From contig JAAYIH010000036.1 in NCBI GenBank assembly GCA_012523545.1, forward strand, positions 37,978 to 101,977: a stretch of DNA of 64,000 nucleotides, written 5' to 3'. Position 1 is the stretch's first letter. Each line of letters begins with the position of its first letter. Of the stretch, positions 18,920 through 53,065 are shown in pieces. Origin of the DNA: Bacillota bacterium. GTDB lineage: Bacteria; Bacillota; Proteinivoracia; UBA4975. The notes beneath the pieces are model-generated. The model searched no databases. It saw only the letters and a program-made list of their open reading frames with translations, and was not told the origin of the DNA. A program made the translations under genes and the position numbers.

Positions 18920-19171
18920 GTGAAGATTTCCGATTTAAAAAATATGCGCGTGGTCAACCTGGCCAACGGCAAATTCCTGGGCAAAATAACCGACTTGATA
19001 ATGGATGTGGACGGCGGCTACATTAAGGCCATCATTTTGCCCGGGGGAAGCAAGTGGCCGGCGTTCTTTGGCGACAGCAGAGAAATGGAAGTGCCATGGA
19101 AGAACATCATGAAAATTGGCCAGGACGTCATCATCGTTGACGTTCCCGAAGTTTGGACGCAAAAAGAATAA
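18920..19171 (+). CDS. ylmC: YlmC/YmxH PRC-barrel sporulation protein
   Basis: MKISDL..VVNL..G..LG..D, VPWKNIMKIGQDVIIV; position after sigG. Confidence 0.9.
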   Translation: MKISDLKNMRVVNLANGKFLGKITDLIMDVDGGYIKAIILPGGSKWPAFFGDSREMEVPWKNIMKIGQDVIIVDVPEVWTQKE

Positions 19172-19186
19172 GGGACAAATCCCCAG

Positions 19187-19215
19187 GTCAGAGGCCGCCA
19201 TCGCGTCATATAGTA
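19187..19215 (+). promoter_or_regulatory. sigmaK-like promoter for the M23 peptidase gene
   Basis: GTCA-N16-CATATAGTA (the -10 fits CATAnnnTA exactly). Confidence 0.45.
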
Positions 19216-19237
19216 TTGTGAAGCGAGGTGGATTGAG

Positions 19238-19933
19238 ATGCCTGCACAACCAGGATTTGTCACCCGTTTTTATACTGCCCGGGGGTTTCGGGTTACCTCT
19301 CCCTTTGGGCCAAGGCCCGATCCTTTCAAGCCGGGGGAAACGGAGTTCCATACCGGCATTGACTTTGGGGGCAAGCCCCAGGGGACTCCTGTGGAAACCC
19401 CTGCCCAGGGGACGGTATTCGCCGCCAGAAGCTACACGGGATGGGGGAACCTGGTGGCAATAACGGATTTTCGGGGTTACATTCATCTCCACGCCCACCT
19501 GGACAGCATCAAAGTCTATCCGGGACAGAAGGTGGCCAGGGGAGATGTCATCGGCACCCTGGGCAGAACGGGAACGGCCACAGGCGTGCACCTGCACTAC
19601 CAGATTAACCGTCCCGGGACAGATGTGCGCGGCGACGGGTACTTTGGCAATCCCGATGAGTATATTTTTGACGAGGTGATGGATGTGGAAAGAGCAATTG
19701 TCCTGGGCAGCGACGCCGATTACTTCAACGCCGCTCCGCTCAGAGACAAACTGAACTGCCCTGTATTTTCCCGTTCCGCCCTGGGCCAATTGAAGGCAGT
19801 GAAGACTGTATACATCTGCGGCGGCGGGGTGGAAGAAGTGGTCAAGGCCGCGCCCAACGCAGAGTTGGTCAACCTCTCGGGCAACAACCGGTATGAGACA
19901 GCCAGAAAAATCCAGGAATTCCTGAAGATGTAA
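19238..19933 (+). CDS. M23 peptidoglycan endopeptidase with a CWB2-like / CTP1L-type C-terminal cell-binding domain; no signal peptide
   Basis: TSPFGPR, HTGID and HLH zinc motifs; C-terminal ..AAPLRDKLNCP..VKTVYICGG..LSGNNRYETA. Confidence 0.88.
   Translation: MPAQPGFVTRFYTARGFRVTSPFGPRPDPFKPGETEFHTGIDFGGKPQGTPVETPAQGTVFAARSYTGWGNLVAITDFRGYIHLHAHLDSIKVYPGQKVARGDVIGTLGRTGTATGVHLHYQINRPGTDVRGDGYFGNPDEYIFDEVMDVERAIVLGSDADYFNAAPLRDKLNCPVFSRSALGQLKAVKTVYICGGGVEEVVKAAPNAELVNLSGNNRYETARKIQEFLKM
19673..19687 (+). promoter_or_regulatory. Internal SD and in-frame GTG (Val150): candidate secondary translation start for the C-terminal domain
   Basis: GAGGTG at 19673-19678, 6-nt spacer, GTG at 19685, exactly at the domain boundary; the same SD hexamer precedes the main ATG. 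Confidence 0.6.
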
Positions 19934-19953
19934 CCCGCCGCCAGCGGGTTTTT
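19932..19953 (+). terminator. Intrinsic terminator after the M23 gene
   Basis: AACCCGC-CGCCA-GCGGGTT plus TTT. Confidence 0.7.
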
Positions 19954-19981
19954 CCTTGCTTGCGAACCGGCCGGCCAGATG

Positions 19982-19990
19982 TGGTATAAT
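19982..19990 (+). promoter_or_regulatory. Extended -10 sigmaA promoter for the HlyD-like/yggS operon
   Basis: TG-G-TATAAT. Confidence 0.55.
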
Positions 19991-20014
19991 TGGTGGCAGG
20001 CAGAGGTGGGGAGA

Positions 20015-20956
20015 TTGAGAAAGCATAAGTTGAAGGTGATTAAAGGAGGCAGGACCCGACGCAACAGAATACCCCTGCTGTTGTTTGCGCTGGCCATGGT
20101 GATTATATCGGTCAGTTTGTTTTGGAACAGTTTGGGGCAATTGACGATTGCTCTGGCGCAGCATACTGTGGTGCGCCGCGAACGCGTCGACCTGGGAACT
20201 GCTGTCACCTGTGTGGTGGTGCGCGCGGAGCAGCCGCTCCTTGCCCCCGACGACGGCATGTACATTCCCGTTGCAGAGAATGGCAGCCGGGTCAAAGTGG
20301 GCCAGGTCTTTGCCCGTATCGAGGGGGCAGACGGCTCCAGAGACCTGAAAGCGCCCTGTTCCGGGTTAATCAATCATTATCCCGACGGGTGGGAAGCGGT
20401 GTTTGTCCCGGGCATGCTGGATAACGACGCCGTGCAGGCCGCAGCTGTGCTGGGGGAAATCTCTGTGCCACCGGACCTCCGGAAAAGGGTGGCCAAAGGT
20501 CAGGTTGTCGCGACAATTGTGGATAATACCGGCTTCCAACTGCTGACCGGTCTGGACGCCTATTGGGAAGGCAAAACGCATACTTTGCTGATTGAGAGTG
20601 ACGGGCGGGAATACGGATTTACGGTTTCGCCGATAGAAACAGTGCATCGTGAGGACCGGATCTGGGTGCTGTGGCGGGTTTCTCCTGCCCGGGACTTATT
20701 GGCCACTGTGCGGCTGGTCCGGGGTGAACTGATTACGGCCCAGGTGGAGGTTGCCAGGGTGCCTGCCGGGGCCCTGACTTCAGTCAACGGTGAAGAAGGA
20801 GTGTATGTCTGGCAGAGGGGCAAAACGGTTTTTTGCCCTGTGGAAGTGGTGTATGCCCGCGGCCAGGAAGCCGGAGTGCAGGGCCTCAAAGATGGACAGG
20901 TAGTATTGTCGTTGCCCCGGTGGGCAAGTTTTATAAAACGGTGGTGGAAAAAGTGA
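20015..20956 (+). CDS. HlyD/membrane-fusion-like protein (the type usually found upstream of yggS in Clostridia)
   Basis: N-terminal TM; lipoyl-like halves 'APDDG...ENGSRVKVGQ' and 'LKAPCSG'; C-terminal 'VPAGAL...GVYV...V.V...GL..GQVV'; TTG after GAGGTGGG. Confidence 0.7.
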   Translation: MRKHKLKVIKGGRTRRNRIPLLLFALAMVIISVSLFWNSLGQLTIALAQHTVVRRERVDLGTAVTCVVVRAEQPLLAPDDGMYIPVAENGSRVKVGQVFARIEGADGSRDLKAPCSGLINHYPDGWEAVFVPGMLDNDAVQAAAVLGEISVPPDLRKRVAKGQVVATIVDNTGFQLLTGLDAYWEGKTHTLLIESDGREYGFTVSPIETVHREDRIWVLWRVSPARDLLATVRLVRGELITAQVEVARVPAGALTSVNGEEGVYVWQRGKTVFCPVEVVYARGQEAGVQGLKDGQVVLSLPRWASFIKRWWKK

Positions 20957-21651
20957 CAGCAGATGTGGTTGGGAATCTCTGCAAAGTCAAGCAGAAGATT
21001 GCCCGTGCGGCCGTTGCCGCAGGCAGGAAGCCTGAAGACATCACCCTGGTGGCGGTAAGCAAGAACGCTTCGGCGGATGCCGTTGCCCGCCTGGTTGCAG
21101 CAGGGCACCGTGACTTTGGCGAAAACAGAGTGCAGGAAGGTCTGCGCAAAATGGAGCGCATAGCCAGGCCCGATGTCAACTGGCACCTGATTGGACGAGT
21201 GCAGACCAATAAGGTCAAATACATAGGTTCGTTTCATTTGCTCCATTCCCTGGACCGCTGGCGGCTGGCGGTGAAGCTTTCGGAATATGCCCTGCGCACA
21301 GGCCAGATCTTTCGGTGTCTTGTTCAGGTCAATGTTTCTGAAGATCCCGCCAAAGCCGGCATCGAAATCACCCAGGTGGACCAGTTCCTGCATGCAGTTG
21401 CCGGTTTGGGAGGCATTTCAATCCACGGGTTGATGACCATAACTGCCGTGAACGCAGAACCGGGCCAAACTTTTCAGTGGTTTAAGGCGCTGGCGGATAA
21501 ATTTGCGCAGCTCAGGGAAGGAAAGCTGCCGGCCGGCGCAGAGATGAAGTGGCTGTCCATGGGAATGTCTGCCGACTTCGAATTGGCCATTGCCGCCGGG
21601 GCCAACATGGTCCGGGTCGGCAGTGCCATCTTTGCAGAGGAAGGAGAATAA
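20953..21651 (+). CDS. yggS: PLP homeostasis protein YggS/YlmE
   Basis: LVAVSK, FGENRVQE, WHLIG..QTNKVK, GLMT, LSMGMSADF, MVRVGSAIF. Confidence 0.95.
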   Translation: MTADVVGNLCKVKQKIARAAVAAGRKPEDITLVAVSKNASADAVARLVAAGHRDFGENRVQEGLRKMERIARPDVNWHLIGRVQTNKVKYIGSFHLLHSLDRWRLAVKLSEYALRTGQIFRCLVQVNVSEDPAKAGIEITQVDQFLHAVAGLGGISIHGLMTITAVNAEPGQTFQWFKALADKFAQLREGKLPAGAEMKWLSMGMSADFELAIAAGANMVRVGSAIFAEEGE

Positions 21652-21652
21652 A

Positions 21653-21919
21653 ATGCCGGACAACATACGCATTGTAATCAATTCCCTGCTCAATGTCTTT
21701 TACCTCCTCTTGCTGGCCAGGATAATTTTGTCCTGGTTTCCCTTGCGTCCGGGCGGAGTAATGGCCGACATCTTTGATGTCCTGCACGCCATGACCGAGC
21801 CCCTGCTGGCGCCCATCCGAAAACTGTTGCCGCCCATCCCCGTGGGCATGGGGTACTTGGATTTGTCACCCTGGCTGCTCATGTTCTTGCTCGGCATAGT
21901 CAGGAGGATGTTGTTGTGA
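21653..21919 (+). CDS. ylmG: YggT/YlmG membrane protein
   Basis: LLARIILSWF, TEPLLAPIR, LDLSPWL. Confidence 0.9.
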   Translation: MPDNIRIVINSLLNVFYLLLLARIILSWFPLRPGGVMADIFDVLHAMTEPLLAPIRKLLPPIPVGMGYLDLSPWLLMFLLGIVRRMLL

Positions 21920-50973: not shown

Positions 50974-52175
50974 TGGACGCGGAAAGCGGCCAGTTTGCAA
51001 TTGGCGCAGAAGGAGAAAATGAGGAGGAGCAGGCCTGCCCCGGCCCATATTAGCAGGGCCGAACACATATTTTGAGCGGCCAGCCAGTAACGGGTTGCCA
51101 GGCCGGCGCCGGAATATTGCACAACCCAGGCCGGGAGGGAAGGAACCCAGCCCAGTTTAAAGAGGAGGGCTGTATACAATGCCGCCAGGGCGGCGTGCAC
51201 AATACGGGCAAAGACATAGGGCCTGATGGACATGTCGGTTTTGCTGATAAATGCGGCCACCTGGCCGTGGACCGACAGGCCGCTCCAGGCAATGATGGCG
51301 CTCATGGCTATTATTTTGCCGCTCATGGGCAGAGCAGAGTGGGCCGCCTGCTGGCAGCCGATGGTAATTTCCAGCAGGCCGTTGACCGCCAGCAACACTG
51401 CTTGGGAGGACAACGCCAGGGCCGACTCCAGGTAACCCAAAAGGCCCGACGCGTTCAGCATTTCAATGGCCACCGAGAAACTTATTATAAAGCCGCCGAT
51501 GATCATCAGGGATTGCATGGACTTGCCGATGGCATCGCCCAGCAATTTTATCAGCGTCCGGCCGTCTTGTTGCCGGGTTCTGAGCAAAGCGCGGGCAGCC
51601 CGGGCCAGGATAAATTCTTTGTCTTCGGGGGCGCGTTGTGACGGAATTGCCCCGGGCTTGTGGAAGCGCATAATTATCCCGGTGGTCAGGCAGGAAAGGT
51701 AATGAGCTGCTACTAAAATCATGCCCGCTTGCGGCCAGCCCAGCATTCCCACTGCTACAGCTCCGGACATGAACAGGGGGTCGGCGGTATTGGCAAAGGA
51801 CATCAGGCGTTCCCCCTCTTCTTTGCTGAGATCGTTGCGTTCCCGGTATTCGGCGGTCAACATTGCCCCAATGGGGTATCCTGATGCCAACCCGACAGCA
51901 AGAACGAAGGCCCCGATGCCGGGGACCCGGAACAACGGCCGCATCAGGGGTTCCAGCAACGTACCCACAAAGTGCACCACTCCCAGCCCCGTCAATACCT
52001 CGGCGACGATAAAAAAGGGGAGCAGGGCGGGGAACACGATGTTCCACCAGACGTCGAAGCCGCGTACCGAAGCCAGAAAGGCCTGTTCGGGAAAGGCAAT
52101 CAGGGCTGCTGCAATTAAAAAACCGCCCAAGGCAAGCATATAGTATTTTATTTTTGTCCTTTTCTGGATTTGCAC
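50958..52175 (-). CDS. ylbJ: Sporulation integral membrane protein YlbJ (SpoVV)
   Basis: VWWNIVFPALLPFF, GLASGYPIGA, NTADPLFMSGAVAVG, GLLEITIG, WSGLSVHGQV; sigmaE-like AATACAAT -10 upstream on the minus strand (52196-52203). Confidence 0.9.
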   Translation of the reverse strand: MQIQKRTKIKYYMLALGGFLIAAALIAFPEQAFLASVRGFDVWWNIVFPALLPFFIVAEVLTGLGVVHFVGTLLEPLMRPLFRVPGIGAFVLAVGLASGYPIGAMLTAEYRERNDLSKEEGERLMSFANTADPLFMSGAVAVGMLGWPQAGMILVAAHYLSCLTTGIIMRFHKPGAIPSQRAPEDKEFILARAARALLRTRQQDGRTLIKLLGDAIGKSMQSLMIIGGFIISFSVAIEMLNASGLLGYLESALALSSQAVLLAVNGLLEITIGCQQAAHSALPMSGKIIAMSAIIAWSGLSVHGQVAAFISKTDMSIRPYVFARIVHAALAALYTALLFKLGWVPSLPAWVVQYSGAGLATRYWLAAQNMCSALLIWAGAGLLLLIFSFCANCKLAAFRVHQRRN

Positions 52176-52240: not shown

Positions 52241-53065
52241 ATGGCGACGCGTCCCAAGATCGGTTTGGCCCTGGGGGCGGGGGCGGCCAGGGGGCTGGCC
52301 CACCTGGGCGTGCTCAAGGTCCTGGAAAAATATAAAATCCCCGTCGACTTTGTCGCCGGGTCCAGTATGGGCGCCTTGGTGGGGGCGCTGTATTGCGCCG
52401 GCCTCGAGGCGGATTTCCTTATCAAGTTTGCCAGGGAACTGCCGTCCAGATCCTGGGTAGATTTGGCTCTGCCCAGAAGCGGTCTGATCAGCGGCAAAAA
52501 AGTGGAGACGATGTTGCAAATGCTGACGCGCAACCGGGATTTTTCCCAACTGAAAATTCCCTTTGCGGCAGTAGCCACAGATATTGAACGGGGGGAAGCG
52601 GTGGTCCTCAAAGAGGGCAATGTGGCGGCGGCGGTCAGGGCCAGCATCAGCATCCCCGTCGTTTTTAAGCCGGTGCGCCTCGGTCAGCGCCTCCTTGTGG
52701 ACGGCGGCGTGGTCGACCGCGTGCCGGTTTCGGTGGTGAGGGAAATGGGCGCGGATGTGGTTATCGCCGTGGACGTCAACAAATTTGTCAGTTATCAGCC
52801 GGTAAAAAACATAATCGATGTCATGCTGCAAACCCTGGACATAATGGAAAGGAAAATCCTGGATGCCCGGGTTCTGGACACCGAAGTGCTGATTCGCCCC
52901 AAAGTTGGGCATATCAGCCCGGCTCATTTTCACCGGGTGGACGAACTGGTGCAGGCGGGAGTGGAAGCGACGGAGGCGGCCATCAGCAAGATTGGTTACG
53001 TTTTGCGCTGCAGGCTCCCGGCTCCGGCCGCTGAAGGCGGGGCTAAATCCGGGCAGGAGTCCTGA
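52241..53065 (+). CDS. Patatin-like phospholipase (YlbK)
   Basis: LALGAGAARGLAHLGV, GSSMG (GxSxG), VRASISIP, LVDGGV. Confidence 0.92.
   Translation: MATRPKIGLALGAGAARGLAHLGVLKVLEKYKIPVDFVAGSSMGALVGALYCAGLEADFLIKFARELPSRSWVDLALPRSGLISGKKVETMLQMLTRNRDFSQLKIPFAAVATDIERGEAVVLKEGNVAAAVRASISIPVVFKPVRLGQRLLVDGGVVDRVPVSVVREMGADVVIAVDVNKFVSYQPVKNIIDVMLQTLDIMERKILDARVLDTEVLIRPKVGHISPAHFHRVDELVQAGVEATEAAISKIGYVLRCRLPAPAAEGGAKSGQES

Follow-up and report, generated by a model that had tools for sequence, protein, structure and literature searches.

In a 64,000-nucleotide (nt) stretch of DNA from a Bacillota bacterium (GenBank assembly GCA_012523545.1, contig JAAYIH010000036.1, positions 37,978 to 101,977 of the forward strand; the whole stretch is hereafter called the window), we analyzed a one-gene unit encoding a signal-less M23 peptidase with a C-terminal wall-binding domain of the type found in the clostridial phage endolysin CTP1L. 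An internal Shine–Dalgarno (SD) sequence and start codon lie at the boundary between the two domains and are conserved in every orthologue examined. We consider it probable that this is a host-fixed, phage-derived lysin gene, which would make a 25.2-kDa M23 enzyme together with a 9.0-kDa free wall-binding domain (both masses calculated), the two assembling as in CTP1L. The parts of the gene, in window coordinates, are as follows.

19238 to 19933, plus strand: full-length lysin gene, 231 amino acids, 25.2 kDa, a signal-less M23 peptidase with a CTP1L-type wall-binding domain.

19346 to 19624, plus strand: M23 (LytM) catalytic domain, residues 37–129, with HxxxD (H38, D42), H87 and HxH (H118, H120).

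19673 to 19678, plus strand: internal in-frame SD GAGGTG, codons Glu146–Val147 in the inter-domain linker, as read from the sequence.

19685 to 19933, plus strand: reading frame that opens at the internal GTG (Val150, read as Met) and ends at the same stop as the full-length gene, the predicted free wall-binding domain of 82 amino acids and 9.0 kDa.

The initial annotation of this DNA, made by a model from the letters alone, had placed an internal SD and a GTG start exactly at the domain boundary, and both were found where it had put them: GAGGTG at 19673–19678 is followed by a 6-nt spacer, ATGGAT, and then by the in-frame GTG of Val150 at 19685–19687. Its remark that the main start uses the same SD hexamer was also confirmed (GAGGTG at 19225–19230). 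In alignments with CTP1L, Val150 pairs with residue 1 of 5a6s_B, i.e., Met-195 of CTP1L, at which the crystallised secondary product begins.

To quantify conservation of the internal start, we analyzed the DNA of 19 non-redundant orthologues. The Val150-equivalent codon was GTG in 11 of them, ATG in 4 and TTG in 4, and nothing else, while an SD-like run (GAGGTG, GGAGG, GGGGTG or AAGGTG) stood 6 nt before this codon in all 19, so that the conservation that the initial annotation had proposed to check was seen without exception. Outside this position, only 35% of the Val codons in these genes are GTG and only 21% of the Leu codons are TTG, and the chance of an all-NTG pattern is ~2e-8 if the orthologues are taken as independent. 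Val147, which forms part of the SD, was encoded by GTG in 16 of 17 sequences, and codons 147–151 had the highest synonymous identity of the gene, 0.88–0.90 against a mean of 0.43 (5-codon window). Since synonymous divergence (dS) among the orthologues runs from 0.9 to >3, synonymous sites elsewhere have been randomised. Among all in-frame internal ATG, GTG and TTG codons, the site had the strongest anti-SD pairing in 16 of the 19 genes and ranked second or third in the other three. In addition, an 89-amino-acid NCBI protein (P0120), identical to the C-terminal part of the orthologue P0009, begins at exactly the Val150-equivalent codon, which the gene caller had read as Met. Together, these results show that the internal SD and start exceed chance and are conserved at synonymous sites in every orthologue examined.

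We also analyzed the domain that this start would release. Searched alone with phmmer against PDB sequences, residues 148–231 gave four matches only, all of them C-terminal domains of clostridial phage endolysins: CTP1L (5A6S chain B and 4CU2) with E 3e-4 across the whole domain, and CD27L (4CU5) with E 0.03. With a family profile of 28 members, the match to CTP1L reached E 6e-8 (profile positions 4–85 against residues 1–78) and that to CD27L 0.011. The same profile matched the CWB2 repeats of Cwp8 (5j6q, E 9e-9), SlpA (~1e-4) and Cwp6, and it retrieved many three-repeat CWB2 proteins too. CS74L of Clostridium phage phi8074-B1 likewise matches the wall-binding domain (35% identity, E 1e-4). 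A domain-only AlphaFold2 model had a mean predicted local distance difference test score (pLDDT) of 91, with strand beta1 starting at residue 150, and its top four Foldseek matches were 5A6S_A, 4CU2, 5A6S_B and 4CU5 (TM 0.72–0.85, root-mean-square deviation [rmsd] 1.7–2.9 Å); the three CTP1L chains among them gave TM 0.79–0.85 and rmsd 1.7–1.8 Å, and below CTP1L and CD27L only generic Rossmann-like folds were ranked. The C-terminal domain is therefore homologous, by sequence and by fold, to the wall-binding domains of CTP1L, CS74L and CD27L, as the initial annotation had suspected for CTP1L and CD27L, and more distantly to CWB2.

Given the profile matches to both CTP1L and the CWB2 repeats, the domain can be described as a single compact relative of CWB2. 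The Clostridioides difficile Cwp/SlpA CWB2 domains (PF04122; Cwp8 5J6Q, Cwp6 5J72) share with it the pattern DAL/AAPL...aPi...vyivGG...lsG.nRyeTa. However, CWB2 proteins carry three tandem repeats that form a pseudo-trimer, whereas the window domain is single, shorter and without the CWB2 insertions. The earlier description of a single CWB2-like repeat therefore held for the remote homology and for the one copy, but not at the level of the Pfam model: PF04122 (CW_binding_2) stayed under its gathering score, with 16.4 bits for the full-length protein and 19.9 for the domain alone against 24.9, and covered residues 213–227 only.

Residues 37–129 form a Peptidase_M23 domain (Pfam PF01551, E 2e-25, 89.3 bits against a gathering cut-off of 28.7), in which the zinc-binding and catalytic residues H38, D42, H87, H118 and H120 are unchanged across 29 homologues. 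Since the M23 active site is complete, the lysin does not belong with degenerate LytM proteins like SpoIIQ or EnvC. The AlphaFold2 model of the full-length lysin (pLDDT 90) has linker residues 141–150 as its sole soft region. Only M23 proteins were among the Foldseek matches listed for this model, and the domain-only model was required for the wall-binding domain. The closest solved folds of the catalytic domain were prophage EnpA (E 1e-10, TMt 0.83), LytM (TMt 0.76–0.80) and lysostaphin, the three together spanning TMt 0.76–0.83. EnpA (the M23 enzyme of an Enterococcus faecalis prophage, 6SMK), LytM and lysostaphin resemble the window lysin in fold and in the full active-site set, but they carry other wall-binding domains or none and are secreted or prophage-borne. 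No export signal was found: the maximum Kyte–Doolittle mean over 15 residues was 0.06 in the first 40 amino acids, and there is no N-terminal Cys for a lipobox. The open reading frame (ORF), the Pfam match and the hydropathy thus agree with the initial picture of an M23 gene without signal peptide or lipobox and with an 82-amino-acid C-terminal domain. No NCBIfam model reached its equivalog cut-off for the lysin, the best being generic M23 families with at most 79 bits against cut-offs of at least 180. Two LysM-M23 proteins (L006 and P0030) were rejected as orthologues because their genomic context differs.

An internal start before a domain of this type has been demonstrated in phages. CTP1L comes from phage phiCTP1 of Clostridium tyrobutyricum and CS74L from phage phi8074-B1 of C. 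sporogenes. In CTP1L, CS74L and CD27L, the free wall-binding domain is produced from an internal ribosome-binding site (RBS) and a GTG or ATG codon, Val-195 of CTP1L being read as Met-195, and lysis is modulated by the free domain, which attaches to the full-length enzyme (Dunne et al., PMC4777826). The window gene is like CTP1L and CS74L (CD27L being more distant) in the fold and sequence of the domain, in having no signal peptide and in placing an RBS and GTG or ATG within the linker, at the homologous codon. It differs in its catalytic domain, which is M23 rather than the GH25 of CTP1L or the Amidase_3 of CS74L and CD27L.

The arrangement extends well beyond these enzymes. In an exhaustive profile search, 1,502 representative proteins carried the domain, falling into three groups: multi-repeat CWB2 proteins, proteins of 220–310 amino acids with one C-terminal copy, and a few of 76–89 amino acids that begin at the domain. 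(A profile search of a word-indexed protein database had returned two proteins only, and the family picture is taken from the exhaustive search of representatives.) Among 56 single-copy representatives, the catalytic partner was Amidase_3 in 22, Amidase_2 in 15, Peptidase_M23 in 10 and VanY/M15 in 3, with lysozyme and GH25 as single cases. Directly before the domain, most single-copy representatives, whether Amidase_2, Amidase_3, VanY or M23 lysins, carry the peptide motif KEE[DE]xM, which, where DNA was available, reads AAGGAGG, 6–8 nt, then ATG or GTG. The internal site of CS74L reads CAAGGGGGTAATAAA GTG.

Stand-alone copies of the domain, 76–88 amino acids long, are present in the databases as P0127, P0136, P0153, P0159, P0162 and P0203. 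A metagenomic lysin of the Amidase_2 type (L088, 689–1768) has two tandem wall-binding domains and no internal SD and start before either; such tandem domains may be an alternative route to several binding modules without a free subunit.

These data bear on the possibility that the gene makes a single product and that the GAGGTG...NTG pattern reflects RNA structure, ribosome pausing for folding, or an amino-acid constraint combined with codon bias. Val, Met and Leu swap conservatively at a buried beta-strand position, the second product is so far a prediction, and internal-start predictors are known to give false positives, for instance in 15% of portal genes (PMC9430671). A fixed SD spacing, start codons alone in all 19 orthologues against the much lower background use of GTG and TTG, and the strongest synonymous constraint of the gene in the face of saturated dS all speak for translation instead, as do the recurrence of the arrangement in distant lysins with other catalytic domains and the positional homology of the site to the verified starts of CTP1L and CS74L. 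Given the start conservation and the family-wide trait, a single product is the least likely of the rival explanations, and we regard it as very improbable.

We next consider whether the gene belongs to the host or to a phage. Its neighbours, in order, are ftsA, ftsZ, spoIIGA, sigE, sigG, ylmC/ymxH (TIGR02888), the M23 gene itself, a membrane-fusion-like gene, yggS, yggT, ylmH and divIVA. Orthologues are 65–79% identical, and the order ylmC/ymxH, (inserts), M23 gene, membrane-fusion-like gene, yggS was kept in every locus with enough flank. The inserts between ylmC and the M23 gene of some orthologues are either YheC/D-type ATP-grasp genes, singly or in pairs, or the three genes of an ABC transporter (L106 3186–3908; L107 1282–3329; L113 1909–3916; L111 333–3870), and the promoter elements stay with the M23 gene. 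In B. subtilis, YheC/D are coat-associated. The M23 lysin family was found only in genomes with spoIIGA-sigE-sigG immediately upstream. The ratio of nonsynonymous to synonymous divergence (dN/dS) is 0.04–0.14 in both domains, and the GC content of the gene, 0.55–0.57, is that of the surrounding DNA. The orthologues come from genomes labelled Bacillota, Firmicutes or Eubacteriales, assembled from digesters and fermentations, and their annotations go no further than generic M23 or hypothetical protein. The window contains no homologues of the holin-like proteins seen on the phage side, and no phage genes lie nearby. As far as sequence can tell, the lysin is a host gene, inherited vertically at a fixed chromosomal position and under purifying selection, and the conserved host synteny and lack of holin homologues uphold the earlier claim of a chromosomal, non-prophage gene.

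Two further features of the region can be noted. The window has no ylmD/pgeF between ylmC and yggS, and at 20833–21919 yggS (ylmE) is followed directly by yggT (ylmG), in overlapping ORFs, with no sepF (ylmF) between them. The ylm operon of B. subtilis differs, having sepF and ylmD/pgeF at those places.

A phage origin is indicated by the nearest relatives of the same architecture, which are on the phage side: P0029 (47% identity), P0036 (33%) and an IMG/VR gene in the contig L118 (36%). All three lie downstream of tape-measure, tail or virion genes and beside small single-pass membrane proteins, surroundings that read as a lysis-cassette layout, and all three have the internal SD and start (L116, L117 and L118). 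A scan of viral contigs with the wall-binding-domain alignment gave no match, its patterns being too family-specific, and it was the full-length alignment that found L118. On that contig, a 364-amino-acid protein that looks like a reverse transcriptase, as judged from its translation only, is encoded just upstream of the lysis region (670–1764), and a large intein-containing ORF resembling ribonucleotide reductase lies downstream on the other strand.

The elements that would control expression of the window gene are the following.

19171 to 19184, plus strand: inverted repeat AGGGACAAATCCCC, family consensus GGGCAwwTCCCC, ~22 nt before the -10-like element and centred at ~-42.

19207 to 19215, plus strand: -10-like element CATATAGTA, which fits the -10 shared by sigmaE and sigmaK (CATA---TA or CATAnAnT).

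19225 to 19230, plus strand: SD GAGGTG of the main start, with a 7-nt spacer to the ATG at 19238; orthologues have AGGTGGTGA at the same place.

19932 to 19957, plus strand: intrinsic terminator, stem AACCCGC...GCGGGTT (19932–19950) plus T-run, closing the one-gene unit.

In nearly all orthologues, [C/A]ATATAGT[A/G] stands 24–38 nt before the start codon. The window's CATATAGTA matches the sigmaK -10 CATA---TA perfectly, and its first and last bases, C and A, vary among orthologues. For both C. difficile and B. subtilis, the -10 elements of sigmaE and sigmaK are very similar and the difference lies in the -35, ATA against AC (PMC3789822). The -10-like element of the window gene accordingly fits a mother-cell promoter of either kind, and dependence on sigmaE or sigmaK is a candidate assignment. 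The initial annotation had named a sigmaK-like promoter with GTCA as its -35. The -10 part of that proposal is compatible with the orthologues, as CATATAGTR is conserved and fits sigmaE/sigmaK, but the -35 part is not supported: GTCA at 19187–19190, N16, then CATATAGTA is present in the window, yet it is window-specific and reads CA, not the AC that sigmaK promoters have 16–17 nt upstream.

The inverted repeat GGGCAwwTCCCC is kept in most orthologues whatever the upstream gene (L001, L002, L003, L005, L081, L106, L108–L111, L114 and L115). It looks like a candidate regulator site, placed as a class-II activator site would be. Consensuses for SpoIIID (GGACAAG), GerE, LexA, sigmaI (ACCCCC...CGAA) and sigmaH were compared with the repeat, and none fits across the orthologues. 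The combined pattern of repeat and -10 occurs once in the window against 0 expected, and CATATAGTR is found twice in the 64 kb, where 0.21 occurrences would be expected. The second CATATAGTA (52137–52145, plus strand) was rejected as a promoter and is probably a chance match, being without the repeat and within a gene on the minus strand; it falls in the 5' end of a 410-amino-acid membrane-protein gene, ~100 nt before a patatin-like ORF (ATG at 52241).

The stem and T-run after the stop codon, together with the conserved -10-like element, substantiate the earlier view of a gene with its own promoter-like site and terminator. No Rfam family was found anywhere in the window, which thus shows no known riboswitch or leader. 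The downstream gene (19979–20956) is membrane-fusion-like (HlyD_2, BSH_RND_rel, weak TIGR02828), has one N-terminal membrane helix and follows the M23 gene in every fetched locus that reaches past it. It has an extended -10 of its own, TGnTATAAT (TGGTATAAT, 19983–19991), seen again in L112. Since TGGTATAAT lies inside the longest ORF, the annotated ATG is probably too far upstream, and a TTG near 20015 is the probable start. A promoter of its own for the downstream gene supports the M23 gene as a separate one-gene unit. We also considered the membrane-fusion-like gene as an export partner of the lysin and rejected it: the linkage is conserved, but the gene has its own sigmaA-type extended -10, a terminator stands between the two, and no functional link was found.

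Our proposal is that one uncultured, spore-forming Bacillota lineage captured a phage endolysin gene and fixed it in its chromosome. One mRNA would give both the full-length 25-kDa M23 endopeptidase, of the active type, and, from GAGGTG-N6-GTG, the free 9-kDa domain. If it behaves like its counterparts in CTP1L, CS74L and CD27L, the free domain would associate with the full-length lysin, and activity would be tuned in the resulting hetero-oligomer, which would carry several wall-binding modules. Because the lysin has no export signal and no holin nearby, it would accumulate in the cytoplasm. Its likeliest use would be timed self-lysis, and we favour lysis of the mother-cell wall to free the mature spore, driven by a mother-cell-type promoter and a regulator acting at the upstream inverted repeat. 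Mother-cell lysis fits best since the protein is signal-less, its domain targets the vegetative wall, sporulation sigma genes are adjacent and the -10 is compatible with mother-cell expression. The production of the second product, its oligomerisation, the timing of expression and the lysis target are what we infer here. A stronger version, in which the gene is a sporulation-wired, holin-independent spore-release device, the first vertically inherited, host-owned two-isoform lysin, with a dedicated regulator at GGGCAwwTCCCC, is put forward only tentatively.

Several observations weigh against this proposal. Every orthologue is from a metagenome-assembled genome and cultured organisms are not represented, and the probability of ~2e-8 rests on the assumed independence of the orthologues. 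Removal of the internal RBS weakened lysis by CTP1L and left that by CD27L unchanged (PMC4777826), which means that the free domain is not always needed for activity. A signal-less enzyme would also need some route to the wall that does without a holin. The promoter, too, is ambiguous. In an anchored alignment of 18 promoters (anchors were misplaced for L107, L109 and L113, which were re-read by eye), neither the AC of sigmaK nor the ATA of sigmaE was conserved as a -35 at 14–18 nt, and with the automatic anchors CATA had C as its leading base in 9 promoters, A in 7 and G in 2. The core TATAGT differs from the sigmaA -10 at a single base, and the promoter could be an activator-dependent sigmaA promoter.

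That last point opens the way to a vegetative or stress autolysin, serving programmed lysis, fratricide or cell separation, expressed by sigmaA with an activator at the repeat and with merely incidental sporulation neighbours. In addition to the near-sigmaA core and the absence of a conserved sigmaE/sigmaK -35, the centre of the repeat near -42 is typical of class-II activators, and the gene sits within a cell-division cluster (divIVA, ylmH and ftsZ are nearby). A plain sigmaA -10, however, does not explain the conserved leading CA of CATATAGT or its non-consensus G, the family occurs only where spoIIGA-sigE-sigG lie immediately upstream, and growing cells would need some system to release a lysin that has no signal peptide, of which none was seen nearby. 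We therefore consider a vegetative role unlikely.

A different fate for the same two products would be a CwlJ-like spore-associated hydrolase, made in the mother cell and deposited on the spore, where it would act in cortex maturation or germination. The missing signal peptide and the mother-cell-compatible -10 suit this idea as well, the gene adjoins the sporulation gene ylmC/ymxH, and YheC/D-type ATP-grasp genes stand directly upstream in several orthologues. B. subtilis offers precedents in LytH, an M23 enzyme that depends on sigmaK and acts on the cortex, and CwlJ, which is signal-less and located in the coat. What tells against it is the domain, which comes from endolysins of vegetative walls and is related to CWB2, a binder of secondary wall polymers that cortex peptidoglycan does not have. 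Moreover, orthology to LytH or CwlJ, which were not compared directly, is unsupported by any NCBIfam equivalog match; no model for LytH, CwlJ, CwlC or CwlH appeared in the NCBIfam output (15 families at E ≤0.01), the presence of such models in the library being unconfirmed. A spore-associated hydrolase is accordingly an improbable reading, and lysis of the mother-cell wall by a two-product lysin remains the one we prefer.

For such a role, the proposed functional analogues are B. subtilis CwlC and CwlH, sigmaK-dependent mother-cell lysins (PMC6403190). Like the window gene as we read it, they are phage-lysin-related hydrolases that serve in mother-cell lysis as sporulation ends, but their catalytic domains (Amidase_3 in CwlC, Amidase_2 in CwlH) are unrelated to M23 and their wall-binding modules are different. 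CwlC, too, is without a signal peptide, and we know of no internal start in either CwlC or CwlH.

In phages, internal starts are predicted for about half of Gram-positive endolysin genes (Pinto et al. 2022, PMC9430671), and an M23-bearing two-isoform case is the M23-amidase-SH3b endolysin of phage 2638A (PMC12203907). The two-polypeptide endolysins (Lys170, LysP7951 and 2638A) resemble the window gene in having overlapping in-frame reading frames for a full-length enzyme and a C-terminal isoform. The short isoform of 2638A comprises amidase and SH3b, whereas that of the window gene would be a bare wall-binding domain. Furthermore, the two-polypeptide endolysins described are all phage genes, while the window arrangement is found in a host gene across saturated synonymous divergence. 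In contrast to CTP1L and CS74L, the window gene is chromosomal and vertically inherited, has no holin, and has its own promoter and terminator within a sporulation and division cluster. The second product and its oligomerisation have been demonstrated for the CTP1L type, whereas for the window gene they are predicted.

Two-isoform endolysins in phages, one M23-bearing case among them, and phage-related sporulation lysins are thus already known. In full-text literature searches, no description was found of a chromosomal lysin that is inherited vertically and retains an internal start. The need for a free wall-binding isoform is debated, given the reduced lysis of CTP1L and the unaffected lysis of CD27L after RBS removal, and a host lineage that keeps the internal start under nucleotide-level selection after phage exit provides natural evidence that the second product matters. 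If the stronger version of the proposal is true, the survival of the internal start through saturating divergence would mean that the free subunit is obligatory and not a mere economy of phage genomes. With this gene, an M23 scaffold also joins the two-isoform lysins, and a 25-kDa enzyme with a 9-kDa subunit would be a small, tractable model for how single CWB2-like modules gain avidity through oligomers. Should expression take place in the mother cell, the gene would represent a second independent recruitment of phage lysins for spore release, after CwlC/CwlH, and one would have to ask how the enzyme gets across the membrane when there is no holin.

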